A stretch of DNA of 32,000 nucleotides from Delftia acidovorans NBRC 14950 (GCF_001598795.1 NZ_BCZP01000012.1:1-32000), one strand, 5' to 3'. Positions 2,517-28,267 are shown, numbered from the stretch's first letter. Numbers and translations are program-made. The notes: a model not told the origin generated them from the letters alone.

Positions 2517-2619
2517 GGCGTCAACCCCATGCACCGGCCCGGCTGTTTCGTCTCTTTCAGCGGAGGCGGGCAGTCGGGCACGGGCTTTTTATTTCTCCAT
2601 CCGCTGAAAGGATCTCTCC

Positions 2620-3371: not shown

Positions 3372-3409
3372 TGCGGTAGCATGCCCTTCATTTTTTAAGC
3401 GGGGCTTGT

Positions 3410-3724: not shown

Positions 3725-3762
3725 GTTCGATATTCATTACTAGACCGGCATTGTTCGGTAGG

Positions 3763-3795
3763 AAAAGGGCTCGCTTTGGCGGGCCTTTTTGTTTG
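3763..3795 (+). terminator. Rho-independent terminator after the moron
   Basis: GGCTCGC (3768-3774), loop TTTG, GCGGGCC (3779-3785, one G-U pair), then TTTTTGTTT. Preceded by AAAA. Ends 9 nt before the tape measure ATG. Confidence 0.7.
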
Positions 3796-3803
3796 GGGGT
3801 CAC

Positions 3804-9098: not shown

Positions 9099-10027
9099 AC
9101 ATTCTTTTGCCGAAAGCGATCACGCCGGATTCGTTCGGCCCCGCCACGTCGATTCCCGAGCTGGATGCAGCCCGGGGCGAGGTGGCGTGGGTCGGCTCCG
9201 GCAACTACAAGGTGGGCGACCGCCGCGTGTATGAAAGGAAAATCTATCAATGCGTGAAAGATCACACGGGCACCGCGACAACGCCGGACAAGATGCCGGC
9301 CGAGTGGCTCTTCAAGGAGCCAACTAACCGCTGGTGCCCGTTCGATCAATACCTGTTCACGAAGGCCCGCGCTGTTCAGTCGCTGACGTACGAGCTCAAG
9401 GGCGTGTTTGCCGATGGCCTGGCTCTGTATGGGCTGGAGGGCGACTCGCTCAGCATCACCATCACGGCCGGTCCTGGCGGGGCAAACCTGATTCCGCCCA
9501 TCAACGCGGACCTCTGGCAACAGGCATACGGCGAATGGGAATACCTCTTCGGCGATCTGCAGCGCGGCGATCACTACGTGCTCCGGGGCATCCCGCTGCA
9601 CCCCGACCAGCGCATCAAGATCACCGTGCGCCGCACCGCGCCGACGGCCGAGGCTGCAGTCGGCTACATCAGCGTGGGCAACCACAAAACGCTATTGGCC
9701 CCCTCGGGCGGCTTCAGCGCGGTCGAGGATGGCGCCGAGGTCACGACAAAGGACTACGGCTACACCAAAGACAACGCGGACGGCACCTACGAAGACATCG
9801 AGGGCCGCAAGGCCAAGAACATCAGCCTGTCCGTCGTGGTCGCCGCTGACCAGGCACCGCTGATCGATTCGCTGTTGACGCAGATCGCCGGCAAGGTGGT
9901 GGCAGTCGAAGTCTCCAAGCTGGCCAAGTTCTCGCACCTCGCAACCGTGGGCAAGGTCACTGGCACCGTGCGCTCCTCGGGCGGCCCAACTGCCCGCGCA
10001 GAAATCCAAATCAAAGGCAACGTATGA
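9095..10027 (+). CDS. Tail tip / distal tail-like protein with an N-terminal carbohydrate-binding-like motif (310 aa)
   Basis: ATGA overlaps with both the TMP and the fibre gene. The N-terminal NYKVGDRRVYERKIYQCVKDH...PAEW resembles CBM5/12-type aromatic motifs seen in phage tail proteins. Function inferred mainly from position. Confidence 0.45.
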   Translation: MNILLPKAITPDSFGPATSIPELDAARGEVAWVGSGNYKVGDRRVYERKIYQCVKDHTGTATTPDKMPAEWLFKEPTNRWCPFDQYLFTKARAVQSLTYELKGVFADGLALYGLEGDSLSITITAGPGGANLIPPINADLWQQAYGEWEYLFGDLQRGDHYVLRGIPLHPDQRIKITVRRTAPTAEAAVGYISVGNHKTLLAPSGGFSAVEDGAEVTTKDYGYTKDNADGTYEDIEGRKAKNISLSVVVAADQAPLIDSLLTQIAGKVVAVEVSKLAKFSHLATVGKVTGTVRSSGGPTARAEIQIKGNV

Positions 10028-11250
10028 CCGATATCGTCACGATCCCGGACGTGCTGCCGATCTCGCCCTATCCGGCGCTCGGCAGCACCAATTTCAACAA
10101 CGAGGCCTATGCATACGCCACGTCGGTCCCGCCCGCTGTCGCGCGCATGCGCGAGATCGCCGTCGCGTGCCGGACGTGTGCAATTGCGGCGCAGGAGTTC
10201 GCGGTGGCGGCTCAAGGCCATGCCAGCAATGCACTCACCTATGCCAACAATGCAGCCGGCAGTGCCAGCGGAGCGGCCACATCCGCTGGGAGCGCGCTCA
10301 CATCTGCCAATAGTGCCGCGACCAGTGCCAGCGGCGCTGCAGCCAGCTATGCGGCAATGCAGAAGCTGTACCTGGGTGCCAAGACGGCAAACCCCACGAC
10401 GGACAACCAGGGCAATGCGCTGCAGGTTGGCGCGTGGTACACATATATCGGCACGGACCCCGCATACAAAGGCGTGTGGCTCTGGTGGGATGGCACAGCC
10501 TGGAACCCGGGTATTGGGCCAGTGGCGGCCACGCTCATGCCAAAGACTGGAGGCGTCTTCTCGGGCCATGTGTCCGGGCCAAGCGGAGCGACCGGGGCGC
10601 AGCACCCGCAGGCTCAGGAGGTGATGCTGAAGGCTCCAGAGGCCTGGGGAAAAGACAAGCTGATGGGTGATTTGGGCGTCGGCTACGCGCTGATGACCAC
10701 TTCGACGGGTCGAGGCGCGGATTGGCCTGTGGAGGGCTATGACGAGAACTTCCAAGCGTGGGATGTCACGACTACCGGCATCCCTTCCCGGATGGTTCAG
10801 GTTGCCACGCAGGTATTCACGACAAACGTGTATGCCCGCACTCAAGGAAGTACCTGGATGCGGTGCCGACATGACGCCACATGGGGGGCGTGGTCTCGCG
10901 TGATTACAGACACGACTGCGATGGGTAAGCAGATAACGGTCAATCAGCCTGCTGGGACGCCGACTTACACCGTGGACCCCGGTTTGGGTGGTGTGCATGT
11001 CGTAACGATTAACGCGACATGCCAATTCATATTGCCTATCGGTCGACAATATGGCGATGAGGTCACGCTGCACGTTATCAGCGCAGGCGCAATACGCGCA
11101 ATTACGTTTTCCGCCAACGTTAGACTGCCAATTGACGGGACTGGTGCACTTTTGCCGTTTCCTCAGTATCCGGCGGGCGGGATGGTAAGCCTCATTTTTA
11201 CCTGCAATCTCGTCAATCGCTGGGAATGCTTTTATGCGGGGGTGCATTGA
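10024..11250 (+). CDS. Tail fibre protein (408 aa)
   Basis: Ala/Ser heptad-like segment (ASNALTYANNAAGSASGAATSAGSALTSANSAATSASGAAAS) followed by KLYLGAKTANPTTDNQGNALQVGAWY, a pattern typical of phage fibres. The C-terminal third drops to about 50% GC. Confidence 0.75.
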   Translation: MTDIVTIPDVLPISPYPALGSTNFNNEAYAYATSVPPAVARMREIAVACRTCAIAAQEFAVAAQGHASNALTYANNAAGSASGAATSAGSALTSANSAATSASGAAASYAAMQKLYLGAKTANPTTDNQGNALQVGAWYTYIGTDPAYKGVWLWWDGTAWNPGIGPVAATLMPKTGGVFSGHVSGPSGATGAQHPQAQEVMLKAPEAWGKDKLMGDLGVGYALMTTSTGRGADWPVEGYDENFQAWDVTTTGIPSRMVQVATQVFTTNVYARTQGSTWMRCRHDATWGAWSRVITDTTAMGKQITVNQPAGTPTYTVDPGLGGVHVVTINATCQFILPIGRQYGDEVTLHVISAGAIRAITFSANVRLPIDGTGALLPFPQYPAGGMVSLIFTCNLVNRWECFYAGVH

Positions 11251-11957
11251 TGTTTGCACGAAGTATGTTGATGGCTAGCGGGCAGCGGCAGATAAACGTC
11301 ATTATCTCGGCCAATGTCCGCAGCCCAAACATTTCCGCACTTGCTACCGCGCAGGGGTGGCGCGGCACTGAAAACATCACTCTTGTGATCAATGCCGGGG
11401 TGGATGTGGCCACGCTGCAGATATCGGGCATTCCAGACGACCGGCTGCACATCATAAACAACGGTCGTATCGGCGGGGTGCTGAATAGCGGCACTGGCTT
11501 GTACACCCGCATCCGAATCCTCGTCACAAATAACGGCACGATATTCGGCGGCGGGGGCGCGGGTGGTCGAGGCAGCTCCGCAGGCTATTCATACCCTGGG
11601 GGAACAAGCGATACAGCCCAGGGCGGAGTAGGTGGTAATGGCGCAGGATTTACTGCATCTGCAGCGGTATCAATGGTCGCCAGAGACACAAGCCCCGCCC
11701 CCACAAGCGGATCGTATGTCAGCTACTCCGGCGCGATTTTCCCTGGCGACACTCGCCCCTGGGCTCAGGGCGGCTTCGGCGGATCCGGTGGCGCTATTGG
11801 GGTTGCAGGAGCGAATGGCGAAAACGCATCCAGCGGAGGAACTGGTGCGACAGGCTCTGTCCCTGGGAGTCCGCCCGCTGCAGCTGGCTACTACCTCGAC
11901 GGAAACGCATACGTCACATGGCTTGCAACCGGCACGCGCCTCGGCCGCGTTATTTGA
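11250..11957 (+). CDS. Glycine-rich tail-fibre-associated protein (235 aa), putative adhesin
   Basis: ATG 11250 overlaps the fibre stop (TGATG). The N-terminal beta-strand-like repeats (ITLVINAG, LHIINNG, ILVTNNG) are followed by several Gly-rich blocks (GGGGAGGRG, GGVGGNGAG, GGFGGSGGAIGVAGANG). Confidence 0.55.
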   Translation: MFARSMLMASGQRQINVIISANVRSPNISALATAQGWRGTENITLVINAGVDVATLQISGIPDDRLHIINNGRIGGVLNSGTGLYTRIRILVTNNGTIFGGGGAGGRGSSAGYSYPGGTSDTAQGGVGGNGAGFTASAAVSMVARDTSPAPTSGSYVSYSGAIFPGDTRPWAQGGFGGSGGAIGVAGANGENASSGGTGATGSVPGSPPAAAGYYLDGNAYVTWLATGTRLGRVI

Positions 11958-11965
11958 GGATCAAC

Positions 11966-12478
11966 ATGTACATCAACACCGAAACCGGGCAATACCCGCT
12001 GAGCGTTGCTCAGATCCAGGAGCTGCACCCCATGACGATGATGGCCCAGCATCTGGAATGCTATGCCCCAGTGGAGCCCACCGACACGCCCGCATATGAC
12101 GCGGACACGCAAAAGCCGATTGAGGTCGAGCCTGTGGAAATCGACGGCGTTTGGCGGCAGCAGTGGTCCGTCGTGCCGCTCACCGAAGATGAGCTGGCCG
12201 AGCTGCAGCGCCTACGCGATGAGGCTGCGGCCGCGCTGATCCCGAAGTCCTGCACGCGGCGCCAGGGGCAGCTTGCGCTCCTCGCTCATGGCGTGCTGGA
12301 CGATGCAGAGGCGGCCATTGCAGCGATCACTGACCCCGTGCAAAAGCGCGAAGCCCAGATCGAGTACGAGGCGGACACATGGGAGCGTGCAAACCTGTTC
12401 CTGCAGCAACTGTGGGCGCAGCTTGGCGGCACGCCGCAGTCGCTCGATGAGGCCTTCGCACTCGCTGTGACTCTCTGA
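11966..12478 (+). CDS. Tail fibre assembly / chaperone-like protein (DUF4376-like C-terminus)
   Basis: ATG 11966 with a GAGGA RBS (the longer track start at 11918 overlaps the upstream gene). MYINTETGQYPLS... N-terminus and a C-terminal CTRRQGQLALLAHGVLDDAEAAIAAI...EYEADTWERAN pattern recalled from DUF4376 proteins next to fibres. Confidence 0.55.
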   Translation: MYINTETGQYPLSVAQIQELHPMTMMAQHLECYAPVEPTDTPAYDADTQKPIEVEPVEIDGVWRQQWSVVPLTEDELAELQRLRDEAAAALIPKSCTRRQGQLALLAHGVLDDAEAAIAAITDPVQKREAQIEYEADTWERANLFLQQLWAQLGGTPQSLDEAFALAVTL

Positions 12479-12496
12479 TCAGCCCCACTCCACAAC

Positions 12497-12518
12497 AGCC
12501 GCCTTCGGGCGGTTTTTT
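12497..12518 (+). terminator. Rho-independent terminator closing the tail module
   Basis: CCGCC (12499-12503), loop TTCG, GGCGG (12508-12512), then TTTTTT (12513-12518). Lies 19 nt after the stop of the preceding gene. Confidence 0.8.
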
Positions 12519-12537
12519 CATGCCCGGAGGAGGGCCG

Positions 12538-12936
12538 ATGAATCAACTTGAACCAACAGCTGCAGCTGTGGCAATCGCGTCCGTGCTCTTCGGGCCTGCG
12601 ATGGCGGGCTACATCGGGCCGTATGCGGTGATCCTCATTGCATCGACCGTGGGAGCCGCGTGGGCACTGGGCCGGCGCGATCCCAGCTCGCGGCTCGGCG
12701 CCGTGGGCTACTTCGCCCGGCTCAACGCCACGGCCTTGCTCATCACTGCCGGCCTGGCCACGCTTGCCGGGCGCTGGATGGGTATGGATGAGACCAACTG
12801 GATGTTGGCGCCCATTGCGCTCGTCGTGGGTGGCGTGGGCGACGACTGGCCGCGTTTGGGCCGTTGGGTCTTCGAGCGCGCCGGGCGCGTGCTGGAGCGC
12901 AAAGCGGGCGGTGGCGGGGAAGGGGGCACTCCATGA
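12538..12936 (+). CDS. Putative holin (multi-TMD membrane protein, 132 aa)
   Basis: ATG 12538 preceded by GGAGGA (12527-12532). Three or four hydrophobic helices and a charged C-terminal tail. It is the first gene of a cluster ending in endolysin and spanins. Confidence 0.55.
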   Translation: MNQLEPTAAAVAIASVLFGPAMAGYIGPYAVILIASTVGAAWALGRRDPSSRLGAVGYFARLNATALLITAGLATLAGRWMGMDETNWMLAPIALVVGGVGDDWPRLGRWVFERAGRVLERKAGGGGEGGTP

Positions 12937-13232
12937 CATGGCAATCCCATCAACTGCTTGCGATGCTCAACCTCGCGATTTGCACAGGCATCGGCTGGGC
13001 ATGCATCTGCCGGCTCAACTCCCATGTGGCTCGGGCGCACAAGCTGGCCCGCGCCAGGTATGCACTGCTCCTGGCCGGCGCGCTGGCCTCGGGCATGCAG
13101 CCGGCCCTGTGGGGCACATGGACCACTGTGGGCGACACCATCTTCAGCGCCTGCGTGCTCGCGGGCCTGCTCATCAACGTGGCGCGCTGGCACGGCGCTG
13201 GCCACCCCATGCGACGGAGTGACGACCAATGA
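12933..13232 (+). CDS. Second holin-like / antiholin-like 3-TMD membrane protein (99 aa)
   Basis: ATG 12933 overlaps the upstream stop (ATGA). Three predicted TMDs (LLAMLNLAICTGIGWACICRL, YALLLAGALASGMQPALW, IFSACVLAGLLINV) and a basic C-terminus. Its stop overlaps the endolysin ATG. Confidence 0.5.
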   Translation: MTWQSHQLLAMLNLAICTGIGWACICRLNSHVARAHKLARARYALLLAGALASGMQPALWGTWTTVGDTIFSACVLAGLLINVARWHGAGHPMRRSDDQ

Positions 13233-13705
13233 CCTACTTCGATGACTGCTTCGAGAAGCTGATCGGCCACGAGGGCGGCTACGTCAGCAATCCCAAGGAT
13301 CCGGGCGGCGAGACCAAGTTCGGGATCAGCAAGCGCGCATATCCAGGCCTGGACATCAAGGCGCTGACGCTGGCCGAGGCCAAGGCCATCTACCGGCGCG
13401 ACTACTGGGATCGGGCGCGATGCGATGAACTGCCCCATGGCGTGGCCTTCGATGTGTTCGACGGTGCGGTGAACTCTGGCATTGGTCAGGCCATTCGCTG
13501 GCTGCAGCGCGCGGCCGGCGTAGCGGATGACGGCATCGTGGGGCCGCTGACCCTCGCGGCTGTGCGTCGCGCCGACCCGGAGGCTATCCAGGCGCGCTAC
13601 AGCGGCCACCGGCTGGAATTCATGGCGCGCCTTTCGACATGGGACACGTTTGGGCGAGGCTGGGCACGACGCGTCGCAAGCAATTTGCAGGGGGTTGGAT
13701 CATGA
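13229..13705 (+). CDS. Endolysin, glycoside hydrolase family 108 lysozyme with C-terminal PG_binding_3-type domain
   Basis: N-terminal FEKLIGHEGGYVSNPKDPGGETKFGIS is the hallmark GH108 motif. The C-terminal ...AGVADDGIVGPLTLAAV... matches the peptidoglycan-binding module usually fused to it. Confidence 0.9.
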   Translation: MTYFDDCFEKLIGHEGGYVSNPKDPGGETKFGISKRAYPGLDIKALTLAEAKAIYRRDYWDRARCDELPHGVAFDVFDGAVNSGIGQAIRWLQRAAGVADDGIVGPLTLAAVRRADPEAIQARYSGHRLEFMARLSTWDTFGRGWARRVASNLQGVGS

Positions 13706-13809
13706 AATCGACGCTGATGAAGTGGGCCACGACGGCCCTTTTTGTTGCCTGGGAGGCTGGCTTGCGCGCCCGTGGCTGGGCTCGCAGGAAAGGCTGGTGG
13801 CCGCGATGA
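13702..13809 (+). CDS. 35-aa micro-ORF (MKSTLMKWATTALFVAWEAGLRARGWARRKGWWPR), putative membrane-active lysis accessory peptide
   Basis: It exactly fills the gap between the endolysin stop and the i-spanin start, with ATGA overlaps at both ends (13702-13705 and 13806-13809). Hydrophobic N-half and Arg/Trp-rich C-half. Confidence 0.35.
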   Translation: MKSTLMKWATTALFVAWEAGLRARGWARRKGWWPR

Positions 13810-14174
13810 TGAGCCCCACACAGATCATCCTGGCTGCGCTGGCGGCCGGCAACTTGCTTCTGGGCTGGGCCTGGCTGTCCGCCCGCGATGACGTGGCCAC
13901 GGCTACCGCTGAACTGGTGAGCATGACGGGGCAGCGCGACGGCGCGCTCAAGGGCGCGCAGGCCTGCAGCGATGCCACCGAGGCCCTGGGCGCGACCGCC
14001 GCGCAGCGTGCTGCCGAAGCGGGGCCTGCCCGCGCCGTTGCCGCTGGCCAGGCTGCCGCGCTCAATGCCCGCGCCGACTACACCCTGGCCACGGCTCCTG
14101 CCGCCCCCGGCGATAGCTGCGCGAGCCTGCAGACCCTGGGCAGCGACTGGCTCAAGGGGAGGGCCAAGCCATGA
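13806..14174 (+). CDS. i-spanin (Rz-like), 122 aa
   Basis: N-terminal TMD (IILAALAAGNLLLGWAWL) followed by an Ala/Gln-rich helical periplasmic domain with Cys residues. Follows the endolysin, and its stop overlaps the o-spanin ATG. The upstream part of track ORF 13650.. has no TMD and overlaps the endolysin. Confidence 0.7.
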   Translation: MMSPTQIILAALAAGNLLLGWAWLSARDDVATATAELVSMTGQRDGALKGAQACSDATEALGATAAQRAAEAGPARAVAAGQAAALNARADYTLATAPAAPGDSCASLQTLGSDWLKGRAKP

Positions 14175-14428
14175 TGCGCGCCATCCTGCTGCTGGGCGCG
14201 CTGGTCCTGGCCGGCTGCGGCTCCGTGCCAAGGGTCGAAGTCCAGACAGTCAAGGTGCCCGTGCCCGTGGAGTGCCGCGAACCGATCCCCGACCGGCCCA
14301 GCATGCCCACGGAAGCCCTGGCAGACGACGCCGACCCCTTCGAGTTGCTGCGCGCTGCGCTGGCCGAGATCGACCGCCGCGAGGGCTACGAGGTGCGGCT
14401 GCTGGCCGCGCTTATAGCCTGCATGTGA
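14171..14428 (+). CDS. o-spanin (Rz1-like outer-membrane lipoprotein), 85 aa
   Basis: Signal peptide with lipobox VLAGC (Cys16) and a Pro-rich mature part (VKVPVPVECREPIPDRPSMP). Separated (non-embedded) spanin architecture. Confidence 0.8.
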   Translation: MMRAILLLGALVLAGCGSVPRVEVQTVKVPVPVECREPIPDRPSMPTEALADDADPFELLRAALAEIDRREGYEVRLLAALIACM

Positions 14429-14520
14429 CCCCTGATGACGCGTGTAGTTTCAAAGCAGAAGTCAGACCAGTAAATGAACTGACGACTTCAGAGAATCTGA
14501 CTTGCAACGGCTCTCTTAAT

Positions 14521-15630
14521 TTATTTGGCTTTGCGTCGGAGTAACAGCGACAAAAAGGCGATTATCGAAGATAAGGCGAATAGTCCAAGTTCACCAATAG
14601 TTGGTACTGCAGTGATTGTTGGTTTAGGAGGAGCTATGTTTGTAAGGGATACATTGCCAGTCGCTGTTCCGCCTCGGCCATCAGAAATTTCATACTGAAA
14701 TGAGATAGGATCTGTGGCATTGCCAGAGGGGGAGAAGGTGATTTCTCCTACTGCCGAGACTCCGATGCTTCCGCCTGTTATCAAAATGTTTGATGGAGTA
14801 CCGCGAGTAATTGGATTTCCATTAATACTGATGATCTGCAAAGTATCCGAATCTGCGTCAGTATCGTTCGCCAAAATATTTAGTATGGTGGGCGAGTTAG
14901 GTATAGAGTATTTGTCCGGATTGGCGATCGGCGGATTGTTCTGGATTTTTGGATTGGTGTAAGTCTGGAAATTATAGAAACCGACAACTTCACCCACTGA
15001 ATCAAGGCCCATCCAACGAATCTCTTTTATGAAGAGACCAGCCGCAATATCAGAAGGAGACAAAGTCACTCCGAATTTCTGAGGTGGGGCATCAAACACG
15101 TTCGTGGAGTCAGAAACTATTGTGCTCGTGCCGTCACTCGCAAAAATTTGGAGATTCGATCTCTCAAATACGTCGTTCCAATCGACAAAATCGAAGCTGA
15201 AAGCAGCAATCGCTGAGTTGGCTAGCTTGAAGGAGATGCCGTTATCTGAATTCACGGCGGCATATATTCCGGGAACTGCTGGTGCTCCGGAGTTCCAAAA
15301 TAGACATTCTTCGGAAAAATTCGATGCACCCGACCCTGAGTTTAAGGTTTGGCAATATTTCGAAGGAGACCAAGGAGTGCCTGTATTGGGTCCGTAAGCC
15401 TCTACGGTAAAACCATTCCATTTATCCGGATTTCCCGCACTTCCTATCGGCTTCAGGTTGACAGAGGAACTGAAATCTTCATGAGTGGCAATTGTTCCAG
15501 AACCAATCGCAGACAAAAATCCGGGTTGATCGTCGATGAAGGTTGAAAACGTGGCCGCATGGCTACCCGCGATCCAAGAAAACATCACAAAGACGGCCGT
15601 GTTCCGTAGTGAAGATATTTCAAAACGCAT
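14521..15630 (-). CDS. Secreted cadherin-like-repeat protein with an IPTL-CTERM-type C-terminal sorting signal (369 aa)
   Basis: Signal peptide (MRFEISSLRNTAVFVMFSWIAGSHA/ATF). NILANDTDADSDTLQIISING is a cadherin-like/VCBS-type motif. The C-terminus VPTIGELGLFALSSIIAFLSLLLRRKAK has an IPTL-like motif, a TM helix and a basic cluster, matching my recollection of the IPTL-CTERM domain. Confidence 0.75.
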   Translation of the reverse strand: MRFEISSLRNTAVFVMFSWIAGSHAATFSTFIDDQPGFLSAIGSGTIATHEDFSSSVNLKPIGSAGNPDKWNGFTVEAYGPNTGTPWSPSKYCQTLNSGSGASNFSEECLFWNSGAPAVPGIYAAVNSDNGISFKLANSAIAAFSFDFVDWNDVFERSNLQIFASDGTSTIVSDSTNVFDAPPQKFGVTLSPSDIAAGLFIKEIRWMGLDSVGEVVGFYNFQTYTNPKIQNNPPIANPDKYSIPNSPTILNILANDTDADSDTLQIISINGNPITRGTPSNILITGGSIGVSAVGEITFSPSGNATDPISFQYEISDGRGGTATGNVSLTNIAPPKPTITAVPTIGELGLFALSSIIAFLSLLLRRKAK

Positions 15631-16058
15631 ATCAATCTTTCATAGATGGAATTTATGGAGGGACGGAGCTTGCCGGAAAATTATCTTCTTCTCAATAAGG
15701 GTAATTGTTAAATTTTGTTAAGCAGATTTCGGAGTGGCCTATCCCTTTTTCACTACTAGTTATCGATAAGTGAGAGGCCATAAGCAGGCTCGAACAATTC
15801 AGGAACGGTCAGTGAAAAAGCGTCGTGGTACGTGATATTAAGGGTTAATACCTATATTCAAATTCCTTGTAATTGTTGTGGTAAATAGATGCAACATGGA
15901 TTTTTGTGTTAAATGCAGGTGAATGTGAGGTGACAGCTCTTGCAGTGCCGAAGTCGGATCTGCAACGCAGGATGACTTTTTAAAAAAATGTTAATTCTTG
16001 GCATGAAGTGTTACTTGTCGATAGCCGTAGGGCATGATGAGAATGACCTATCGATAAC

Positions 16059-16088
16059 GCAAAATTGAGCATTTTGCTTAAGCAAAAC
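16059..16088. repeat. Three-arm inverted-repeat element GCAAAAT-TGAGC-ATTTTGC-TTAA-GCAAAAC upstream of the SRAP-like gene
   Basis: Arms at 16059-16065, 16071-16077 and 16082-16088. The last two form the perfect 16-nt palindrome TTTTGCTTAAGCAAAA (16072-16087). Lies about 95-120 nt upstream of ATG 16182. Confidence 0.6.
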
Positions 16089-16181
16089 AGGATGGGTTTG
16101 GTTCGAAGCGGATGCTTGTTTAGTAAGCTTGCGAATTCCGCTCTGTGAAAATCCTGAATAGCGATTCAAGAGGCTCTCGGC

Positions 16182-16880
16182 ATGGGTAATAGATATAGCT
16201 CTCCCGATATTTCTGATATTGACGAAATCTATCCGCTGCAAGGACCTGCTCCTAAAAAGGGGTGGGGTGTATATATAGTGCCATTGGCATGCGGTCCATA
16301 TATTAAAGCATGTGAATGCTTAGAAGTTGGGCAATGGGGGTTGATTCCAACGACGTCGCTAAGCAGGCGTCCTTTAAATTTGGATGGTTCCCCTATGTCA
16401 ACGGAAAAAGCGTTCAGAGAAACGTTGAGCAATGATTACGTCTTTGGCCCGTCTTGGCATGCAGGCCGAAGGTGTCTTATCCCAGTGAGCAGCTGGATCG
16501 AGAATTACTCTGGTTTATCTGGTCGCAGTATTAATTGGATGTTCCGGCGTTCCGATGGAAAGCCTGCAATGTTGGCAGGGCTGTATAGTGAATGGATCGA
16601 TCCGGTGAGCGGAGAGAAGGTGCCGAACTACACGGTGATCACACAAGATGCCGGAGCGCATCCAGTTCTCTCTCTCATGCACAGGCCTGGCAGAGAAAAG
16701 AGGTGTGTGGTAGTCCTGGAGCGCCAAGACTGGGATGCTTGGCTGCATTGCGCTCCGTCCCAAGCAGATTCATTGATTAAGTTGCCCATGATGGGGACGT
16801 TGAAGAGCGGGGCAGAAAACCCAGACGAAGAAGCTCTGTTGCCTCTTGAGCAGTTGCGCGCATTAAAGGCAGGTGGTTAA
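16182..16880 (+). CDS. SRAP (SOS-response-associated peptidase, YedK/HMCES) fold protein lacking the catalytic Cys2 (232 aa)
   Basis: Block-by-block similarity to E. coli YedK as I recall it: MCGRF/MGNRY; FWGYAPGW/QWGLIPTT; RAICFADGWFEW/RRCLIPVSSWIEN; PFFIYRADGQPIFMAAI/NWMFRRSDGKPAMLAGL; LIVTAAA...IHDRRPLVL/TVITQDA...MHRPGREKRCVVVL. AAGAGG RBS. An in-frame TGA 27 nt upstream excludes a longer N-terminus. Confidence 0.75.
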   Translation: MGNRYSSPDISDIDEIYPLQGPAPKKGWGVYIVPLACGPYIKACECLEVGQWGLIPTTSLSRRPLNLDGSPMSTEKAFRETLSNDYVFGPSWHAGRRCLIPVSSWIENYSGLSGRSINWMFRRSDGKPAMLAGLYSEWIDPVSGEKVPNYTVITQDAGAHPVLSLMHRPGREKRCVVVLERQDWDAWLHCAPSQADSLIKLPMMGTLKSGAENPDEEALLPLEQLRALKAGG

Positions 16881-16984
16881 TTTGGTGCTTGCTATCCAAT
16901 CGCGTGGCAATTTATCAAGTTTTTTTCTCGTGCAGAAATCAGCTATAAATTGGGCTTGGTAATCTTGTTAAAAACGGTGAGAGC

Positions 16985-17173
16985 ATGGAATTAAATATTT
17001 ATGAGATTCTGCTATTCATTGCATTGCAATTAATTTGCTTCTCGTTTTTTATGATAATATTTTGGACGTATTGTATTGTTGTGAAATCAAAAATAAGAGA
17101 ATCTTTTAATATCTTGGCTTTTATTTTTGGAGTTTTGGTATCTTTCGTCGCTGCAGATTTTCTCACGCCGTAG
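16985..17173 (+). CDS. Possible 62-aa two-TMD hydrophobic protein
   Basis: ATG 16985 with GGTGAGAG upstream. Two hydrophobic stretches (ILLFIALQLICFSFFMIIFWTYCIVV and ILAFIFGVLVSFVAADFL) separated by KSKIRESF. Extremely AT-rich, so a chance ORF is less likely but not excluded. Confidence 0.35.
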   Translation: MELNIYEILLFIALQLICFSFFMIIFWTYCIVVKSKIRESFNILAFIFGVLVSFVAADFLTP

Positions 17174-17287
17174 CAGATTTTTATTGGAATTGCCGTACCG
17201 CATCTTGTCAAGATTTGCTGCGCATATTTTTTGTTAAAAGACTGAGTGGGAAGATAAAGATCACTCCGCGTCCGGTATCAGGAGCTT

Positions 17288-17578
17288 ATGCAAGGCCGTC
17301 AAGCCATAATCTACACGCTGCACATAGATATGCAGGTTTCTGGTTGCTATACGGACCGGATCTTGCATGGGAATGTCGAGCTCTTCGAGTTCCAGGCGGC
17401 CACGCTCTCCGGTGCAATCCGAGATGGTTGTTCCGTTGGCAACTTGCTGCGACTAGAGGGATTCCACATCTGGTACGGCCATGTGTCCATCGGCACCACG
17501 TCGCTCTATGCCATGCGCCACGACGCCGAGACGCTGGCGCAGCGGCTAGTGAGCCTGCATTCGCAGTTCGGCGGGTAG
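17288..17578 (+). CDS. Hypothetical protein (96 aa)
   Basis: ATG 17288 preceded by AGGAG (17278-17282). The alternative frames and strand give Arg-rich junk. No family recognised. GC is intermediate, and it lies between the island and the tRNA. Confidence 0.4.
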   Translation: MQGRQAIIYTLHIDMQVSGCYTDRILHGNVELFEFQAATLSGAIRDGCSVGNLLRLEGFHIWYGHVSIGTTSLYAMRHDAETLAQRLVSLHSQFGG

Positions 17579-17763
17579 GGGGAGCGCAGCCCGAACTGTC
17601 TTGGTCGGATCTGAAATCCGAGCAAGTTGAAGGCACTTGGTGTGCTGGTGAGGGTACGGAGAGGCCTGAGGAAGAAGCGCCGCTGCGGGCGAGCCAGCTG
17701 CAAGCGCCATCGGCTGAACAGGGGGCTTGAGCTGCCGAGGCTCAGGTATGCTTTGGCAGCTGC

Positions 17764-17790
17764 AAAACAAAAAGGGAAATTGAGTTTCCC
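17764..17790 (-). terminator. Rho-independent terminator downstream of tRNA-Thr
   Basis: The minus strand reads GGGAAA-CTCAA-TTTCCC followed by TTTTTGTTTT. It lies about 50 nt 3' of the tRNA. Confidence 0.7.
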
Positions 17791-17838
17791 CAATTTCCCC
17801 CCAGAATCCTTGCGGAACCCGCATGGATGCTATGTTTT

Positions 17839-17914
17839 TGGTGCCGGAGAAAGGAATCGAACCCTCGACCTTCTCATTACGAATGAGCTGCTCTACCAAC
17901 TGAGCTACACCGGC
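17839..17914 (-). tRNA. tRNA-Thr (anticodon CGU), 76 nt with encoded CCA
   Basis: Minus strand: GCCGGTG TA GCTC AGTTGGTA GAGC A GCTCA TTCGTAA TGAGA AGGTC GAGGG TTCGATT CCTTT CTCCGGC ACCA. It folds by hand into a cloverleaf with anticodon CGT. One U6-U67 acceptor mismatch and two G-U pairs in the T stem. Confidence 0.9.
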
Positions 17915-17940
17915 GACAGACAAAAATTATAACGGCAAAT

Positions 17941-18948
17941 TCATGCCTCGGAATGGTACTGCGTCACTTTTTCGACTTCGTTCTTGGAGCCGAGGATGAC
18001 GCTCACACGTTCGTGCAGTTGGGTGGGCTGGATGTCGAGGATGCGTTGCTTGCCGTTGGTGGCGGCGCCGCCGGCCTGCTCTATGAGCCAGGACATGGGG
18101 TTGGCTTCGTACATCAGGCGCAGCTTGCCGGGCTTGTTGGGCTCGCGGCGGTCCCAGGGGTACATGAAGATGCCGCCGCGGGTCATGATGCGGTGCACGT
18201 CGGCCACCATGGAGGCGATCCAGCGCATGTTGAAGTCCTTGCCGCGCGGGCCTTCCACGCCGGCCAGGCATTCGTCCACGTAGCGCTTGACGGGGGTGTC
18301 CCAGTGGCGCATGTTGGACATGTTGATGGCGAATTCCTTGGTGTCTTCGGGGATGCGGATGTTTTCCTGCACCAGCACGAAGGAGCCTTGCTCGCGGTCC
18401 AGCGTGAACATGGATACGCCGTCGCCCACGGTCAGCACGAGGGTGGTCTGCGGGCCGTAGATGCAGTAGCCGGCCGCGACCTGCTGGGTGCCGGGCTGCA
18501 TGAAGTCCTGCTCGGTCACGCCGGGGTGGCCTTCGGGCTTCTTGAGCACGCTGAAGATGGTGCCGATGGAGACGTTGACGTCGATGTTGGACGAGCCGTC
18601 CAGCGGATCGAACATCAGCAGGTATTCGCCGTGCGGGTAGCGGTTGGGCACCAGGTAGATGCCTTCCATTTCCTCGGAGGCCATGGCTGCCAGGTGGCCG
18701 CCCCATTCGTTGGCCTCGATCAGCACCTCGTTGGCGATGATGTCCAGCTTCTTCTGGACTTCGCCCTGCACGTTCTCGCTGCCGGCCGTGCCCAGCACGT
18801 CGCCGATGGCACCCTTGTTGACGGATTGGCTGATGCGCTTGCAGGCGCGTGCCACGACTTCCAGCAGCAGGCGCAGCTGGCCGGGGATGAGGCCGTCCAC
18901 GCGTTGCTGCTCGACCAGGTAGCGGGTCAGGCTGACGTTTTTCTTCAT
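17941..18948 (-). CDS. fbp: Fructose-1,6-bisphosphatase class 1
   Basis: 335 aa from ATG 18948 (AGGAG 8 nt upstream); the track ORF has a 22-aa upstream extension. Sequence [16 protein letters not shown]...[21 protein letters not shown]...[19 protein letters not shown] is classic class I FBPase. Confidence 0.95.
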
Positions 18949-19146
18949 GGGTTCAACTCCTAAAAATCCGGGAGCAGATGCGGTGTGGAGTATGCATCTG
19001 CTGATGAACAGCATTTCAGTGATTCCTGGCTCGCAGCATGAAACCGGCGTTGTTCAGGCCAGGGACACCGAGGAAGAGCCGCCTCGCACCGAGGGTGTCG
19101 TCCCCCTGCAAGGGGGAAGGCGCGAAGCGACTCAGGGGGTGGCTCG

Positions 19147-21873
19147 TCAATCCGCCAGGGCGCGGGTGACTACCTCACGCACGTCGTTGCTGAGCTCAGC
19201 GCGGGCCGCCACGCGGGCGACGGCCTCGCGTGCGGCCGTGCGGTAGGGCTCGGCCAGCTTGCTCCAGCGGTCCAGGGCGCGCGCCAGGCGGGCGGCGACC
19301 TGGGGGTTGATGGCGTCCAGCTCGATGACGCGCTCGCTCCAGAACACATAGCCCGCCGCGTCGGCGCGGTGGAAGGCGCCTGGGTTGGCGCTGCAGTAGC
19401 TGAAGATCAGGCTGCGCGCGCGGTTGGGGTTCTTGATCTGGAAGTCGGGGTGCTTCATCAGCTGCTTGACGGCCGGCAGCACGTTGCCGCCACGGTCGCA
19501 GGCGCCGCCCTGCAGCGCGAACCACTTGTCCAGGACCAGTGCATCGTGCTGGAACAGCTTGTGAAAGCGTGCCAGCGCCTGGGCGGCCAGCGGGTGGCCG
19601 CTTTGCACCAGTGCCGTCAGGGCGCTCATGCGGTCGGTCATGTTGCCAGCGTCCTTGAAGCGCTGCAGCGCCTTGCCGGGCCAGACGCTGTCGCCCGAGG
19701 CGCGTGCGGCCAGGCACAGCATGGACAGGGCCAGGCCTGCCAGCGCACGGCGGCCGGAGCTGACGGGGGCGGGGCGGTAGGCGCCGGTGTCGCTGTGCTC
19801 TTGCCATGCCTGCTGCCAGTCGGCCTGCAGCTCGGTGGCCAGTTGCTGGCGCATGGCTTCACGCACGGCGTGCACGCGCTGCGGATCGACCACGGCCAGT
19901 TGCTCGGCGATGTAGCTTTCGCCGGGCAGGGCCAGCATCAGCTCCTTGAAGGCCGCATCCAGCTGGGGATGGCGCAGCACGCCGCGCATGGCCTCGACGA
20001 AGGAGGCCGGCAGCAGGGCGGCCGTGATCTGGCCGCTGGCGTCTGCCGTGATGGAGGTGTCGCCAATGGCCTGCAGCGCGATGCGCAGGCCCAGGCGCTG
20101 GCCAGCTTCCCAGCGGTTGAAGGCATCGCTGTCATGGGCCAGCAGGGTCAGCAAGGCGGCATCGCTGTCGCTGTGCTGCAGCACCACGGGGGCGCTGAAG
20201 CCGCGCAGCAGCGAGGGCACGGGCTCCTGGTCCACGTCGGTGAAGACGAAGCTGTGGCTGGGCTCGGACAGCACGAGCAGGCGGCTGTCGCCCGCTGCCG
20301 CCTGATCCTCGCCCTGCAGGCGCAGGGTCAGCGCGCGGCCGTCCTGGCCCAGCAGGCCCATCTGCACGGGGATGACGAAGGGCAGCTTCTCGGCCTGGCC
20401 CGGCGTGGGCGCGCAGCTTTGGCTCAGCGTCAGCGTGTAGGTGCGTGCGGCAGCGTCATAGCTGCCTTCGGCGTGCAGCTGGGGCGTGCCGGCCTGGCTG
20501 TACCAGCGCTTGAACTGGTCCAGGCGCTGGGCCAGCTCGCTGCCAGGGTTGGCGTCGGCCATGGCCTGGGCGAAGTCGTCGCAGGTGACGGCGTGGCCGT
20601 CATGGCGCTCGAAATACAGCTTCATGCCCTTGGCAAAGCCTTCGCGGCCCACCAGGTTGTGCTGCATGCGCACGACCTCGGCACCCTTTTCGTAGATGGT
20701 GACGGTGTAGAAGTTGTTGATCTCGATGTAGCTGTCGGGCCGCACCGGGTGGGCCATGGGGCCCGCATCTTCGGGGAACTGGGCGGTGCGCAGCACGCGC
20801 ACGTCCTCGATGCGCTTGACGGCGCGCGCCGAGGGGCTGCCCGCCATGTCCATGCTGAATTCCTGGTCGCGGAAGACGGTCAGGCCTTCCTTGAGCGACA
20901 GCTGGAACCAGTCGCGGCAGGTGACGCGGTTGCCGGTCCAGTTGTGGAAGTACTCGTGGCCGACGACGGACTCGATGTTGGCGTAGTCGATGTCGGTGGC
21001 CGTGGACTGGCTGGCCAGAACGTACTTGGTATTGAAGACGTTCAGGCCCTTGTTCTCCATGGCGCCCATGTTGAAGTCGCTGGTGGCGACGATCATGAAG
21101 CGGTCCAGGTCCAGGGACAGGCCGAAGCGGGCCTCGTCCCAGGCCACGCTGGCCATGAGGGAGTTCATGGCGTGCTCGGTCTTCTCCAGGTCGCCGGGGC
21201 GCACGAAGACCTGCAGCAGGTGGTCGCGGCCTGCGCGGCTCTTGATCTTTTGCTCGCGCGCAACCAGATTGCCGGCCACCAGGGCGAACAGGTAGCTGGG
21301 CTTTCTGTGCGGATCGGTCCACTTGGCGAAGTGGCGGCCGTCTTCCAGCGCGCCTTGCTCGACCAGGTTGCCGTTGGACAGCAGCACCGGGTACGCGGTC
21401 TTGTCGGCGCGCAGCGTCACGGTGTACATGGCCATCACATCGGGACGGTCCAGGAAATAGGTGATGCGGCGGAAACCCTCGGCCTCGCACTGGGTGAAGA
21501 ACGTGCCCTGGCTCACATACAGGCCCATGAGCTTGGTGTTCTTGGCGGGCGCGCAGGTGGTGAAGATTTCCAGATCGACGGGGTCGCCGCCCTCGGGCAG
21601 GTTCTCCAGCACGAGCTGGTCGCCGTCCATCTTGAACGAGGTGCCGCCGCCGTTGACCAGCACGCGCGCAAGGTTCAGTTCATCGCCGTCCAGGCGCAGC
21701 GGCTGCGCCGGCACCTCGGTGTTGCGGCGCACGCGCATCTTGTTGAGCACGCGGGTCTTGGCCGGATCGAGATCGAAGGTCAGGTCCACGGTGTCGATCC
21801 ACCAGGCAGGAGCCTGGTAGTCGGCGCGGTGGATGGCGGTGGCAGGGGCCTGCCCGTCACGCAGTTGCAGCAT
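19147..21873 (-). CDS. pepN: Aminopeptidase N (M1 family)
   Basis: 908 aa. Carries the GAMEN exopeptidase motif (NMGAMENKGLNVF) and the zinc motif HEYFHNWTGNRVTCRDWFQLSLKEG (HExxH-18-E). Confidence 0.95.
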   Translation of the reverse strand: MLQLRDGQAPATAIHRADYQAPAWWIDTVDLTFDLDPAKTRVLNKMRVRRNTEVPAQPLRLDGDELNLARVLVNGGGTSFKMDGDQLVLENLPEGGDPVDLEIFTTCAPAKNTKLMGLYVSQGTFFTQCEAEGFRRITYFLDRPDVMAMYTVTLRADKTAYPVLLSNGNLVEQGALEDGRHFAKWTDPHRKPSYLFALVAGNLVAREQKIKSRAGRDHLLQVFVRPGDLEKTEHAMNSLMASVAWDEARFGLSLDLDRFMIVATSDFNMGAMENKGLNVFNTKYVLASQSTATDIDYANIESVVGHEYFHNWTGNRVTCRDWFQLSLKEGLTVFRDQEFSMDMAGSPSARAVKRIEDVRVLRTAQFPEDAGPMAHPVRPDSYIEINNFYTVTIYEKGAEVVRMQHNLVGREGFAKGMKLYFERHDGHAVTCDDFAQAMADANPGSELAQRLDQFKRWYSQAGTPQLHAEGSYDAAARTYTLTLSQSCAPTPGQAEKLPFVIPVQMGLLGQDGRALTLRLQGEDQAAAGDSRLLVLSEPSHSFVFTDVDQEPVPSLLRGFSAPVVLQHSDSDAALLTLLAHDSDAFNRWEAGQRLGLRIALQAIGDTSITADASGQITAALLPASFVEAMRGVLRHPQLDAAFKELMLALPGESYIAEQLAVVDPQRVHAVREAMRQQLATELQADWQQAWQEHSDTGAYRPAPVSSGRRALAGLALSMLCLAARASGDSVWPGKALQRFKDAGNMTDRMSALTALVQSGHPLAAQALARFHKLFQHDALVLDKWFALQGGACDRGGNVLPAVKQLMKHPDFQIKNPNRARSLIFSYCSANPGAFHRADAAGYVFWSERVIELDAINPQVAARLARALDRWSKLAEPYRTAAREAVARVAARAELSNDVREVVTRALAD

Positions 21874-21909
21874 ACAGATTCCTTCCTATGCCAATATCAG
21901 GGGACAGAG

Positions 21910-21949
21910 TTCAAGCCCCTGTGCGGCCGGTGCCGCCCAGGGGCTTGAA
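21910..21949. repeat. Perfect 12-bp inverted repeat (stem-loop) between the prfB stop and the pepN start
   Basis: TTCAAGCCCCTG (21910-21921) pairs with CAGGGGCTTGAA (21938-21949). The 16-nt spacer contains a further GCGGC/GCCGC pair. No T-run on the transcribed (minus) strand. Confidence 0.6.
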
Positions 21950-21950
21950 A

Positions 21951-23055
21951 TCAGAGGCCTTGCTTGAGCGAGGCTTCGATGAAAGCGTCGAGGTCGCCGT
22001 CCAGTACCTTCTGGGTGGCCGAGATTTCGACGTTGGTGCGCAAATCCTTGATGCGGCTGTTGTCCAGCACGTACGAGCGGATCTGGTGGCCCCAGCCCAC
22101 ATCGGTCTTGGTGTCCTCCAGCTTTTGCTGCTCCACCATGCGCTTTTGCATCTCGTGCTCATAGAGCTTGGAGCGCAGGCGCTGCCAGGCCACGTCGCGG
22201 TTGCTGTGCTGGCTGCGGCCGTCCTGGCATTGCACGACGATGCCGGTGGGCATGTGCGTCAGGCGCACGGCCGAGTCGGTCTTGTTGATGTGCTGGCCGC
22301 CCGCGCCCGAAGCGCGGTAGGTGTCGGTGCGCACGTCCGAGGGGTTGATCTCGATCTGGATCGAGTCGTCGATCTCGGGGTAGACGAACAGCGAGGCAAA
22401 GCTGGTGTGGCGGCCGCCCGAGCTGTCGAAGGGCGACTTGCGCACCAGGCGGTGCACGCCGGTTTCGGTGCGCAGCAGGCCGTAGGCGTACTCGCCTTCG
22501 ATGTGGATGGTCGCGCTCTTGATGCCGGCGATGTCGCCCGGCGTCTCTTCCTCGACCGTGGCCTTGAAGCCCTTGCGCTCGGCGTACTTCAGGTACTGGC
22601 GCAGCAGCATGCCGGCCCAGTCGCAGGCTTCGGTGCCGCCGGCGCCGGCCTGGATGTCCACGAAGCAGTTCAGCGGATCGGCTTCCTTGCCGAACATGCG
22701 GCGGAACTCCAGCTCCTCGATCAGCGGCTGCAGCTTGGCGGTCTCGCCCTCGATGGTGAGCAGGCCGGTCTCATCGCCTTCTTCCTTGCTCATCTCGAAC
22801 AGCTCGGCGTTGTCGGCCAGCTCGGTGGTGAGCTTTTGCAGCGTCAGCACGACGCCGTCGAGCAGCTTCTTTTCCTTGCCCAGTTCCTGGGCCTTCTTGG
22901 GGTCGTTCCAGACGCTGGGATCTTCCAGCGAGGCATTTACCGTGCGCAGTCGTTCGTACTTTGCATCGTAGTCAAAGATACCTCCGTAGATCTGCCGCAC
23001 GCTGCGACAGATCTTCGAGGGTGTTGCCGATGAGGTTGATGCGTTCTGCTTCCAT
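21951..23055 (-). CDS. prfB: Peptide chain release factor 2, expressed via programmed +1 frameshift (frame 0: 23055..22975; +1 frame: 22973..21951)
   Basis: ATG 23055 gives [27 protein letters not shown], then in-frame TGA. The +1 frame continues [22 protein letters not shown]... with SPF (RKSPFDS) and GGQ ([11 protein letters not shown]) motifs. The 431-aa track ORF is the +1 frame with a spurious N-terminal extension. Confidence 0.95.
22971..22985 (-). promoter_or_regulatory. RF2 autoregulatory +1 frameshift site GGAGG TAT CTT TGA C
   Basis: The minus strand reads GGAGGTATCTTTGAC. This is an internal Shine-Dalgarno-like GGAGG, 3 nt, then CTT-TGA-C, in the same arrangement as the E. coli prfB site. 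Confidence 0.9.
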
Positions 23056-23292
23056 GATGTGTTCCGTTCTTCTGATGAATGTGTTCTTGGCCGAATCGCC
23101 GATTTTCTCATGCTGGGGCATCGTGCCGGGGCAAGCGCCCGCCGCGCGGGTCCGGAGGCGCGCTGCCGTGTGACGATGGCTTTCAAAACAAGGGCTTGCA
23201 GCGGCCGATCATGGCAGATTTGAAGGGCTTGGCCATGGCAATGCACAGGTTGCAGCGTGGACCCTGGCGTGATCTGGCTGCAGACCTCCCGG

Positions 23293-23326
23293 AAAAAAGG
23301 CCCGGCCAGCAGGAGCTGGTCGGGCC
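23293..23326 (-). terminator. Rho-independent terminator of the MCP gene
   Basis: The minus strand reads GGCCCGACCAGC-TCCT-GCTGGCCGGGCC followed by TTTTTT (plus-strand A-run 23293-23298). Lies about 45 nt after the stop. Confidence 0.8.
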
Positions 23327-23370
23327 TTGGCAGGCATGTCCGCCCCCGGCGGGGCGGGCGAAAACCTGGT

Positions 23371-25230: not shown

Positions 25231-25352
25231 GGTGGGGAGTGCCGTACGGCGAGAAGCGAAAGCGGGTGAGCGGCGGTGGCTGCGAATCGAGGGGATGCGG
25301 TGGCGATCGGTGGCGATCAGCGGGGCCGACACTCGGCCCCGCCATGCCGCAG

Positions 25353-25380
25353 TTATCGGTCACTTGCCGGCGAGGCTTAG
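25353..25380 (-). promoter_or_regulatory. Sigma-28 (FliA)-like promoter upstream of the MCP gene
   Basis: The minus strand reads CTAAG-N15-ACCGATAA, against the remembered consensus TAAA-N15-GCCGATAA. Lies about 120 nt upstream of the chosen ATG. Confidence 0.45.
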
Positions 25381-25460
25381 GGAAAAATAGGTCCAGTCCG
25401 AATATTTATTGCGGATTGTTACTTTTGCCGGCCAAGGTCTCCGCGCACATGGCCTGGTCC

Positions 25461-25508
25461 GTTCACATGCCAGTTCACACGTCCGCTCACACGTCCGTCG
25501 CCACGCCG
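25461..25508. repeat. Tandem 12-nt repeat, 3 good copies plus 1 degenerate, straddling the stop of the GGDEF-EAL gene
   Basis: GTTCACATGCCA / GTTCACACGTCC / GCTCACACGTCC / GTCGCCACGCCG. On the coding (minus) strand this gives three in-frame TGA codons spaced 4 codons apart. Confidence 0.7.
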
Positions 25509-28075: not shown

Positions 28076-28238
28076 GGTTCGCTCTCCTGATGGATGCTGA
28101 GCTGATGATTGATTGTTTCTAAATGATACCGATCCGGCGCAGCAGCTGGATGTCAGCCACACCTGATCGCACTTGCTTCCACTGTTCGCCCTTGGATGGT
28201 CCGCCTGATGGCACTCTTAGGCAAGTGCTTCCGCTGGT

Positions 28239-28266
28239 TACAATGATTTGAGAATGATTCTTGTTT
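28239..28266 (+). promoter_or_regulatory. Putative Fur box upstream of the ECF sigma factor gene
   Basis: TTACAATGATTTGAGAATGATTCTTGTT contains two AATGAT(T) hexamers. GAGAATGATTCTTGTT matches the remembered GATAATGATAATCATT at 11 of 16 positions. The context is an iron-uptake FecIRA-type cluster. Confidence 0.45.
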
Positions 28267-28267
28267 G

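Follow-up and report, generated by a model that had tools for sequence, protein, structure and literature searches.

Between the lysis genes of a prophage and a tRNA-Thr gene, the genome of Delftia acidovorans NBRC 14950 contains a stretch of low GC content, raising the questions of whether this DNA belongs to the prophage or arrived separately and what its genes contribute. The window analyzed here (the whole stretch of 32,000 nucleotides, GCF_001598795.1 NZ_BCZP01000012.1:1-32000, with positions counted from its first letter) contains the right arm of a tailed prophage of HK97 type, which is integrated into tRNA-Thr(CGT) at the 3' end of the gene. It is 99.995% identical over 21 kb to D. acidovorans GCA_000741825.1 (L101), and the 9.5 kb to its left (L102) encode TerL, a portal protein, a ClpP-type protease, an HK97-type capsid and tail genes. 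A prophage slot filled with a foreign three-gene cassette is as such nothing out of the ordinary; what sets this one apart is a conserved lineage of SRAP proteins without catalytic nucleophile, paired with a tiny membrane peptide. The anatomy as a whole, i.e., prophage right arm, cargo slot, 2.86-kb low-GC cassette, terminal gene, arm and attR (Table 1), is proposed with high confidence, and the overall explanation favoured here is considered probable.

The GC content drops sharply directly past the o-spanin stop (14428) and recovers at ~17215-17290. It amounts to 0.444 between 14429 and 17214, compared to 0.638 in the phage part (1-14428) and 0.675 in the host part (17915-32000). Accordingly, 300-nt segments within the island average 0.447, whereas those outside average 0.657 (sd 0.048, minimum 0.51); the lowest 100-nt segment (0.23) lies at 17030. 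The low-GC stretch reported after the o-spanin stop in a preliminary description of the sequence is thus confirmed, and the four open reading frames (ORFs) claimed for it, encoding a surface protein, a SRAP-fold protein, a 62-aa peptide with two transmembrane (TM) segments and a 96-aa protein, are all real as described. BLAST searches yielded no match of the island to plasmids or of window positions 1-18000 to GenBank phages, and in a search of 14000-18200 against Rfam (E <= 1) only the tRNA was matched.

Breakpoints were mapped in ten genomic contexts, each retrieved through the identical FBPase protein encoded next to the tRNA gene. Three of them (L092, L094, L098) align to the window only from position 17837 rightward and are empty sites, cut at the tRNA 3' end. 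Prophage and island together were found in one strain among these contexts (L101), the island without structural or lysis genes in five strains (L093, L096, L097, L099, L100) and in the metagenomic contigs L162 and L163. Homology of these island-only sequences to the window starts within the spanin genes, at 14351 (L093, L097, L099, L100, L163), 14108 (L096) or 14398 (L162), and a 2.4-kb piece of the prophage left arm is retained (window -9037 to -6662, corresponding to 509-2884 of L102). A second copy of the tRNA 3' end (20-21 nt) is located on the far side in L093, L096, L097 and L099, and also in L095, which is truncated by an insertion sequence (IS) and has only a 240-bp arm beside the tRNA (window 17598-17838) followed by the IS; no far-side copy was detected in L100. 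In view of the spanin fragments fused to the island, the left-arm piece and the distal attachment site (att) copy, the island-only strains carry remnants of the same prophage, left behind by deletions of ~21 kb that took out the genes from the terminase to the spanins. In each of the five remnant strains, none of the four ORFs is disrupted. The left-arm segment, kept wholly or partly in L093, L095-L097, L099 and L100, contains ORFs of 107, 122 and 74/79 aa without Pfam match and may be a second selectively kept piece.

Neither the window nor L102 contains a further copy of the tRNA 3' end or att site. Since no att copy intervenes between lysis genes and tRNA, the island lies inside the att-bounded element, and the left att site and the integrase gene must lie beyond the 9.5 kb to the left. 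Taken together, the breakpoints at empty sites, the distal copies of att and the fragments of spanin genes bear out the view that the prophage carries the low-GC stretch as accessory DNA at its att-proximal end. The preliminary description had named the same island at this tRNA in strains lacking the prophage as a finding that would speak against phage carriage. Formally, L093, L096, L097, L099, L100, L162 and L163 present this very situation; phage carriage nevertheless stands, since these are remnants with spanin fragments and the left-arm piece.

Alternatively, the stretch could be an independent genomic island that reached tRNA-Thr earlier or separately and became a tandem neighbour of the prophage. 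Its location beside fbp and tRNA-Thr in the five strains without lysis or structural genes and the occurrence of the cassette in non-phage contexts (L006, L111; see below) would agree with such an origin, as would the tandem integration observed in L163, where ~3.2 kb between two tRNA-Thr 3' end copies (11703-14917) represent a small element integrated in tandem, confirming this tRNA gene as an integration hotspot. The missing att copy between lysis cassette and tRNA, the spanin fragment fused to the island and the left-arm piece in the remnants (with a distal att site in 4/5 strains), and the immediate neighbourhood of o-spanin and terminal gene in related prophages largely refute an independent island, which is regarded as very improbable.

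The position of the cassette within the prophage becomes apparent from comparison with IMG/VR prophages sharing an o-spanin 86-100% identical to that of the window, in which the distance between the spanin match and an 89-aa gene was determined. This distance is 288-299 bp (GC 0.66-0.68) in L167, L172, L173 and L174, where the slot is empty, and 561 bp in L171. Other cargo fills it in L166 (1143 bp, GC 0.47), L168-L170 (~2.1-2.2 kb) and L175 (2521 bp, GC 0.48), compared to 2860 bp (GC 0.44) in the window. Neither a SRAP nor a cadherin-like gene occurs in the slot of L166-L175. With the slot of related prophages empty or otherwise filled, the cassette is dispensable to the phage lineage. Slot contents in the IMG/VR loci, including the more distant L189, comprise HicA (2.7e-23), a protein with H-NS C-terminal domain (5.6e-12), a match to the PADLOC model 1TM-TIR (2e-10), a weak HEPN match and unknowns.

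The right edge of the slot is formed by the gene of the 96-aa protein, which had been described as an orphan and as part of the island cargo. Neither designation holds: homologues of the protein, with a typical length of 89 aa, form 33 clusters from Delftia, Acidovorax and Paracidovorax, and the gene directly follows the spanins in related prophages, e.g., with a gap of 167 bp in Acidovorax L109, the o-spanin of which shares 62% aa identity with that of the window. The 89-aa gene was found in 31 IMG/VR viral contigs and at the very end of ~20 of these. Sequence comparison thus identifies the 96-aa gene as the conserved terminal backbone gene of the prophage lineage rather than imported cargo, which also accounts for the GC recovery, since this gene (GC 0.58) is the phage's own. 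The imported DNA is consequently confined to 14429 to ~17287, with three genes. An AlphaFold2 (AF2) model of the 96-aa protein (pLDDT 92) displays a beta-beta-beta-alpha-beta-beta-alpha-alpha fold. No structure in PDB or BFVD resembled it at E < 0.01, and only an RNase-H-like or uS11-like topology was recognized; profiles of the 89-aa family likewise retrieved nothing from PHROGs or the PDB sequences. For the 96-aa protein, the ratio of nonsynonymous to synonymous substitution rates (omega; Nei-Gojobori, as for SRAP below) is 0.19. In many related prophages, the 89-aa gene is directly preceded, often with overlap, by a gene for a small membrane protein (92-96 aa) with weak PnuC-like match (5732-6010 in L175 and in L168/L170, 5726-6004 in L104, 4477-4767 in L189), suggesting a pairing of the two; the window has the 62-aa two-TM peptide, an unrelated protein, in its place.

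Cassette genes are also linked elsewhere, as the preliminary description had proposed to examine. Window positions 14519-17579 (3.06 kb) share 77% identity with D. lacustris L006, where the block spans exactly from the stop of the surface protein gene to that of the 96-aa gene and lies between an IS and the gene of a 2889-aa protein of the type found in integrative and conjugative elements (ICE). Beside tamB in L111-L115, surface protein (-), SRAP (+), a 66-aa two-TM ORF (+; in L111 a positional analogue of the 62-aa peptide) and 89-aa gene (+) follow each other in the same order, and L161 represents a further variant of the cassette. Searches with tblastx for phage remnants beside the cassette in L006 and L111 returned only noise. 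The window's own genome harbours a second locus (L003; GCA_000741825.1, KN046795.1 3309860-3330558) in an ICE-like region, with a pair of Gly2-SRAP (10001-10699) and 62-aa TM peptide (79% aa identity), a surface-protein homologue 6.5 kb away from this pair, a TraI_2 relaxase, an LPD38 fragment and an nSTAND/AAA_22 protein. In L164, the SRAP protein (7617-8303) has Asp at residue 2 (MDNRY) and the surface-protein gene is located downstream rather than upstream; in L165, the SRAP gene (316-1011) is interrupted by an internal stop and the TM ORF is deleted. In a Rhodoferax metagenome-assembled genome (L018, 6233-7678), a Cys2-containing SRAP relative (46% identity) stands beside the convergent gene of a 218-aa PEP-CTERM surface protein, a pairing with a sorted surface protein that echoes the cassette and may be coincidence.

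No terminal repeats, target duplications or recombinase were seen at the cassette borders. The cassette was probably swapped into the slot by recombination between the conserved flanks. GC content at third codon positions (GC3) is near 0.5 in all cassette SRAP copies (window, L006, L111, L003), compared to near 0.8 in the host; its persistence despite saturated synonymous divergence suggests repeated import from a pool of lower GC content rather than long residence in Delftia.

The location in the slot and the four intact, constrained ORFs in seven strains or contigs that have lost ~21 kb of prophage speak for a cargo that benefits the lysogen, which is judged a likely role of the cassette, though by no means a certain one. 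Examples of morons and lysogenic-conversion cassettes located at prophage att sites are gtrABC of P22 and bor and lom of lambda. The cassette resembles these in lying past the lysis genes and within the att sites of the prophage, in its deviant composition, in its absence from related phages and in its retention when the prophage decays. It differs from them by unrelated gene content and by circulating also in ICE-like and chromosomal contexts.

The SRAP protein of the cassette scores 71.9 bits with PF02586 (cut-off 27.1; 7e-20), the match starting only at profile position 54, and matches phrog_1599; its best solved relative is 1zn6 (1e-17), a phage-related SRAP from Bordetella. An in-frame stop at 16155-16157 rules out an upstream start, and the protein therefore starts at 16182 with the N-terminus MGNRY rather than MCxRY, confirming the Cys2-less SRAP fold recognized earlier. 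In YedK numbering, Gly2, Lys75 and Phe77 replace Cys2, Asn75 and Arg77, whereas the equivalents of Glu105, Thr149, His160 and Arg162 are kept; E107 and H167 of the protein occupy invariant positions of the alignment, opposite E105 and H160 of YedK. Gly2 is shared by P0001, P0002, P0003, P0005 and the L093-type copies. By comparison, Cys2, Asn75 and Arg77 are invariant in 80/80 relatives from species-representative genomes outside the cassette clade, and Cys2 is present in all 44 scorable IMG/VR relatives. Judged from its residues, P0004 (L111), which has kept Cys2 and Asn75 and carries Cys at position 77, looks like an intermediate. The cassette SRAP thus shares the domain and the retained residues with YedK/HMCES (including 1zn6) and the location as end gene of a temperate phage with the prophage Cys2 SRAPs; it differs in the three replaced residues and low GC3. 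In the closest Cys2 relatives (~60% identity), GC3 is 0.76-0.87, compared to 0.49 in the gene of the window, and no TM ORF is located downstream, where the gene of the window has the two-TM peptide.

For canonical SRAP proteins, Cys2 is described as absolutely conserved (PMC3765255). In YedK, exchange C2A abolishes crosslinking, R77A abolishes binding of single-stranded DNA (ssDNA) and N75A weakens binding 17-fold, Asn75 and Arg77 forming contacts to the abasic (AP) site and phosphate (PMC6821365). Without the Cys2 thiol, SRAP becomes an AP lyase that cleaves AP-DNA by way of an N-terminal Schiff base, ring opening being catalyzed by Glu105 and His160 (PMC9436759). Of the residues kept in the cassette protein, Glu105 and His160 are those for ring opening and for stabilising the linkage, and Thr149 and Arg162 those that bind phosphate. 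By analogy to YedK C2A, the thiazolidine crosslink to abasic sites is predicted to be absent from the cassette protein. Most likely, it would still engage abasic or single-stranded DNA without trapping. This may take the form of non-covalent binding or, as in YedK C2A, of AP lyase activity through the N-terminal amine; this specific mechanism, drawn from the YedK analogy, is offered tentatively and considered rather doubtful. Together with the TM peptide, the protein would probably function in conflicts involving other phages or mobile DNA. A lineage converted from covalent abasic-site shield to non-trapping ssDNA/AP-site sensor or AP lyase, which together with the two-TM peptide forms a prophage- and ICE-borne system excluding or damaging incoming phage or conjugative DNA, is a speculative and decidedly unlikely extension of this proposal. 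Two more specific candidates were weakened: Lys75 as new Schiff-base nucleophile by Thr at this position in P0005, and a lyase using N-terminal Gly by the Asp2 variant of L164.

A reading of the cassette as foreign DNA in decay, now functionless and with SRAP as a dead pseudo-enzyme, could draw on the loss of three strictly conserved residues, on the premature stop and deleted TM ORF of L165, on TM peptide omega values reaching ~1, and on the low GC content, which suggests recent import. However, omega of the SRAP protein is 0.05-0.20 with synonymous divergence (dS) saturated and exceeding 2 between some copies, values equal to those of the active-looking Cys2 clade (0.07-0.29), and none of the remnant strains examined has a disrupted ORF. 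This substitution pattern indicates that the SRAP protein is under purifying selection and maintained rather than decaying; mere decay is considered extremely improbable.

A service to the phage itself, the SRAP protein being a DNA-damage sensor or switch for induction or an ssDNA protector and the Gly2 form a variant of it, is suggested by the Cys2 relatives, which are the final gene of dozens of related prophages, with 39/45 IMG/VR hits located <=3 kb from the contig end. Such a role has been proposed for prophage SRAPs by Aravind et al. (PMC3765255). The frequency of SRAP at this location also qualifies the preliminary description: the gene is indeed cargo other than phage structural genes, but no oddity at this position. 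Since the gene remains intact and constrained after deletion of structural and lysis genes, leaving nothing to induce, and the chemistry for AP-site protection is gone, a phage-serving role appears quite improbable.

Conversely, SRAP and TM peptide, possibly with the 96-aa protein, could constitute a dedicated anti-phage abortive-infection or exclusion system unrelated to the surface protein, in which phage ssDNA or abasic lesions would be detected by the disabled SRAP, which would then set free the small membrane peptide as effector. Three genes on one strand in the same order in three contexts agree with this proposal, as do the toxin-antitoxin and defence-like genes in the slot of relatives (HicA, TIR-like and HEPN-like proteins) and the small membrane protein preceding the 89-aa gene in many related prophages. 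However, no literature linking SRAP to phage defence was found, the 96-aa gene is a backbone gene present without SRAP, the intergenic gaps of 104 and 114 nt provide no operon proof, and the TM peptide is missing in L161 and L165. None of the four proteins matched a PADLOC model (PADLOC-DB v2, E <= 0.1), bearing out the earlier statement that no known defence or conversion module fits; PADLOC, NCBIfam and PHROGs provided nothing informative beyond SRAP/phrog_1599 and Big_9. A dedicated exclusion system is therefore considered unlikely.

With a GC content of 0.30, the 62-aa peptide gene has the highest AT content within the island. Its start, stop and length are the same in L003/L004, L006, L093, L096, L097, L099 and L100, and an exhaustive HMMER search against 1.84 billion representatives retrieved only the peptide's own cluster.

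Several observations weigh against the favoured explanation of a maintained, lysogen-benefiting cassette with a non-trapping SRAP. Besides the negative PADLOC result, constraint on the TM peptide is weak, its omega values (0.15-1.35) being noisy due to shortness, and the metagenomic copy L165 has lost both an intact SRAP and the TM ORF. Without Arg77, canonical ssDNA binding may be lost completely, Lys75 is not shared by the whole clade (Thr in P0005), and Asp2 of L164 would block Met removal, arguing against an N-terminal-amine lyase. The presence of the cassette outside recognisable prophages (L006, L111) shows that it is no strict phage cargo, and its gene order could be inherited from a common ancestral block, without the genes being coupled in function. 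Finally, a consensus scan found 2 promoter-like sites, compared to 4.4 expected by chance.

Upstream of the SRAP gene, the blocks AAATGTTAAT, GGCATGATGAGAAT and CTATCGATAAC at ~15978-16060 are conserved across copies otherwise 64-83% identical, and this conservation suggests that they may be a promoter or operator; they fit no consensus promoter and no Rfam family. A sigma-54 promoter in the conserved block was rejected, since its GG/GC elements are not kept in L006, and so was a conserved leader hairpin (GCAAAATTGAGCATTTTGC), likewise not kept in L006. The palindromes noted earlier in the intergenic regions are present but short, and an excess over chance was not shown.

In the surface protein, a signal peptide is followed by a lectin/adhesin-type beta-sandwich (residues ~26-230) and a Big_9/cadherin-like Ig domain (residues 231-330); the C-terminus, with VPTIGELG, a hydrophobic helix and RRKAK, represents a degenerate IPTL-CTERM anchor. 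As to the IPTL-CTERM label given to it previously, the motif is visible and homologues at 54-60% identity match PF18203, but the copy of the window itself remains below threshold with TIGR04174 (13.6 bits, cut-off 20.5) and has no PF18203 match. The protein resembles IPTL-CTERM/choice-of-anchor proteins in signal peptide, Big_9 domain, (I/V)PT(L/I)-x-E-x-G motif, TM helix and basic tail, but differs in an anchor motif under the NCBIfam and Pfam cut-offs. The ~200-aa N-domain is fused in homologues to autotransporter or IPTL-CTERM anchors. An AF2 model (pLDDT 86) matched the ligand-binding domains of the adhesins FrhA and MpIBP in Foldseek (E 6e-6), and also carbohydrate-binding modules (6e-6 and weaker); with the RTX adhesins FrhA and MpIBP the likeness is one of fold type only (TM-scores of 0.2-0.3 for the whole chain). 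Omega is 0.125 for the whole protein, 0.07-0.10 for the N-domain, 0.07-0.25 outside the signal peptide and ~0.8 for the signal peptide. The protein is probably exported by Sec and anchored via the IPTL-CTERM-like tail, and an adhesin-type role or cell-surface masking would be the natural inference from the fold model. It would thereby alter adhesion or receptor access, i.e., bring about lysogenic conversion.

Table 1 Features of the prophage right end, from the lysis genes to the tRNA gene used for integration (positions in the window)
Feature	Position	Strand	Evidence or remark
Two small genes (132 aa and 99 aa), putative holins	12538-13232	+	Gene calls in near-identical L101; upstream of endolysin
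Endolysin, GH108 and peptidoglycan-binding domain	13229-13705	+	PF05838 1.2e-27, PF09374 2.7e-10
i-spanin, 122 aa, N-terminal TM segment	13806-14174	+	L101 gene call
o-spanin, 85 aa, lipobox LAGC	14171-14428	+	phrog_3580 3e-15, Rz-like spanin PHROGs
Low-GC cargo, ~2.86 kb, between o-spanin and terminal phage gene	14429-17287		GC 0.44
Secreted adhesin-like surface protein, 369 aa	14521-15630	-	Big_9, Cadherin_5 and Cadherin_4 domains
AT-rich divergent intergenic region, 551 bp	15631-16181		Conserved blocks upstream of SRAP gene
SRAP-fold protein, 232 aa, without catalytic nucleophile	16182-16880	+	PF02586
62-aa two-TM peptide	16985-17173	+	Hydrophobic segments, residues 8-26 and 43-61
96-aa protein, terminal phage gene	17288-17578	+	89-aa family member, GC 0.58
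Phage arm, 260 bp, terminal gene to tRNA	17579-17838		Not in empty sites L092, L094, L098
att core overlapping 3' end of tRNA gene	17837-17861		Second copies in remnant strains
tRNA-Thr, anticodon CGT, integration target	17839-17914	-	ARAGORN; Rfam RF00005 64.8 bits

For the gene calls in L101, coordinate x equals 28949 minus the window coordinate. The two genes upstream of the endolysin have no Pfam match and are putative holins by position alone. The i-spanin is homologous to i-spanins of Acidovorax L109 and IMG/VR prophages. The o-spanin is the final lysis gene and marks the left border of the slot; prophage homology with L010 stops at 14423. A terminator-like hairpin (17771-17802, minus strand) is located downstream of tRNA-Thr within the phage-derived arm, and the 3' flank of the tRNA in lysogens is therefore supplied by the prophage. 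Farther upstream, between tail-chaperone genes and the tape-measure gene, a 104-aa ORF (3410-3724, plus strand) with hydrophobic N-terminus coincides with a local GC dip (0.56-0.57); it has no gene call in L102 and may be a second small accessory gene.

For prophages of Comamonadaceae, the order of spanins, cargo, 89-aa terminal gene and att defines a slot that can be mined for accessory and defence genes. Known SRAP proteins (YedK, HMCES) are understood via one reaction, the trapping of abasic sites in ssDNA by Cys2. A clade without Cys2, Asn75 and Arg77 that is conserved as strongly as its catalytic relatives implies that the fold has a second, selected use. The Gly2 clade represents a natural counterpart of the laboratory mutant C2A, which cleaves rather than shields DNA; riding prophages and ICE-like elements and outliving the carrier prophage, it points to a role in the fitness of mobile elements or of the host.

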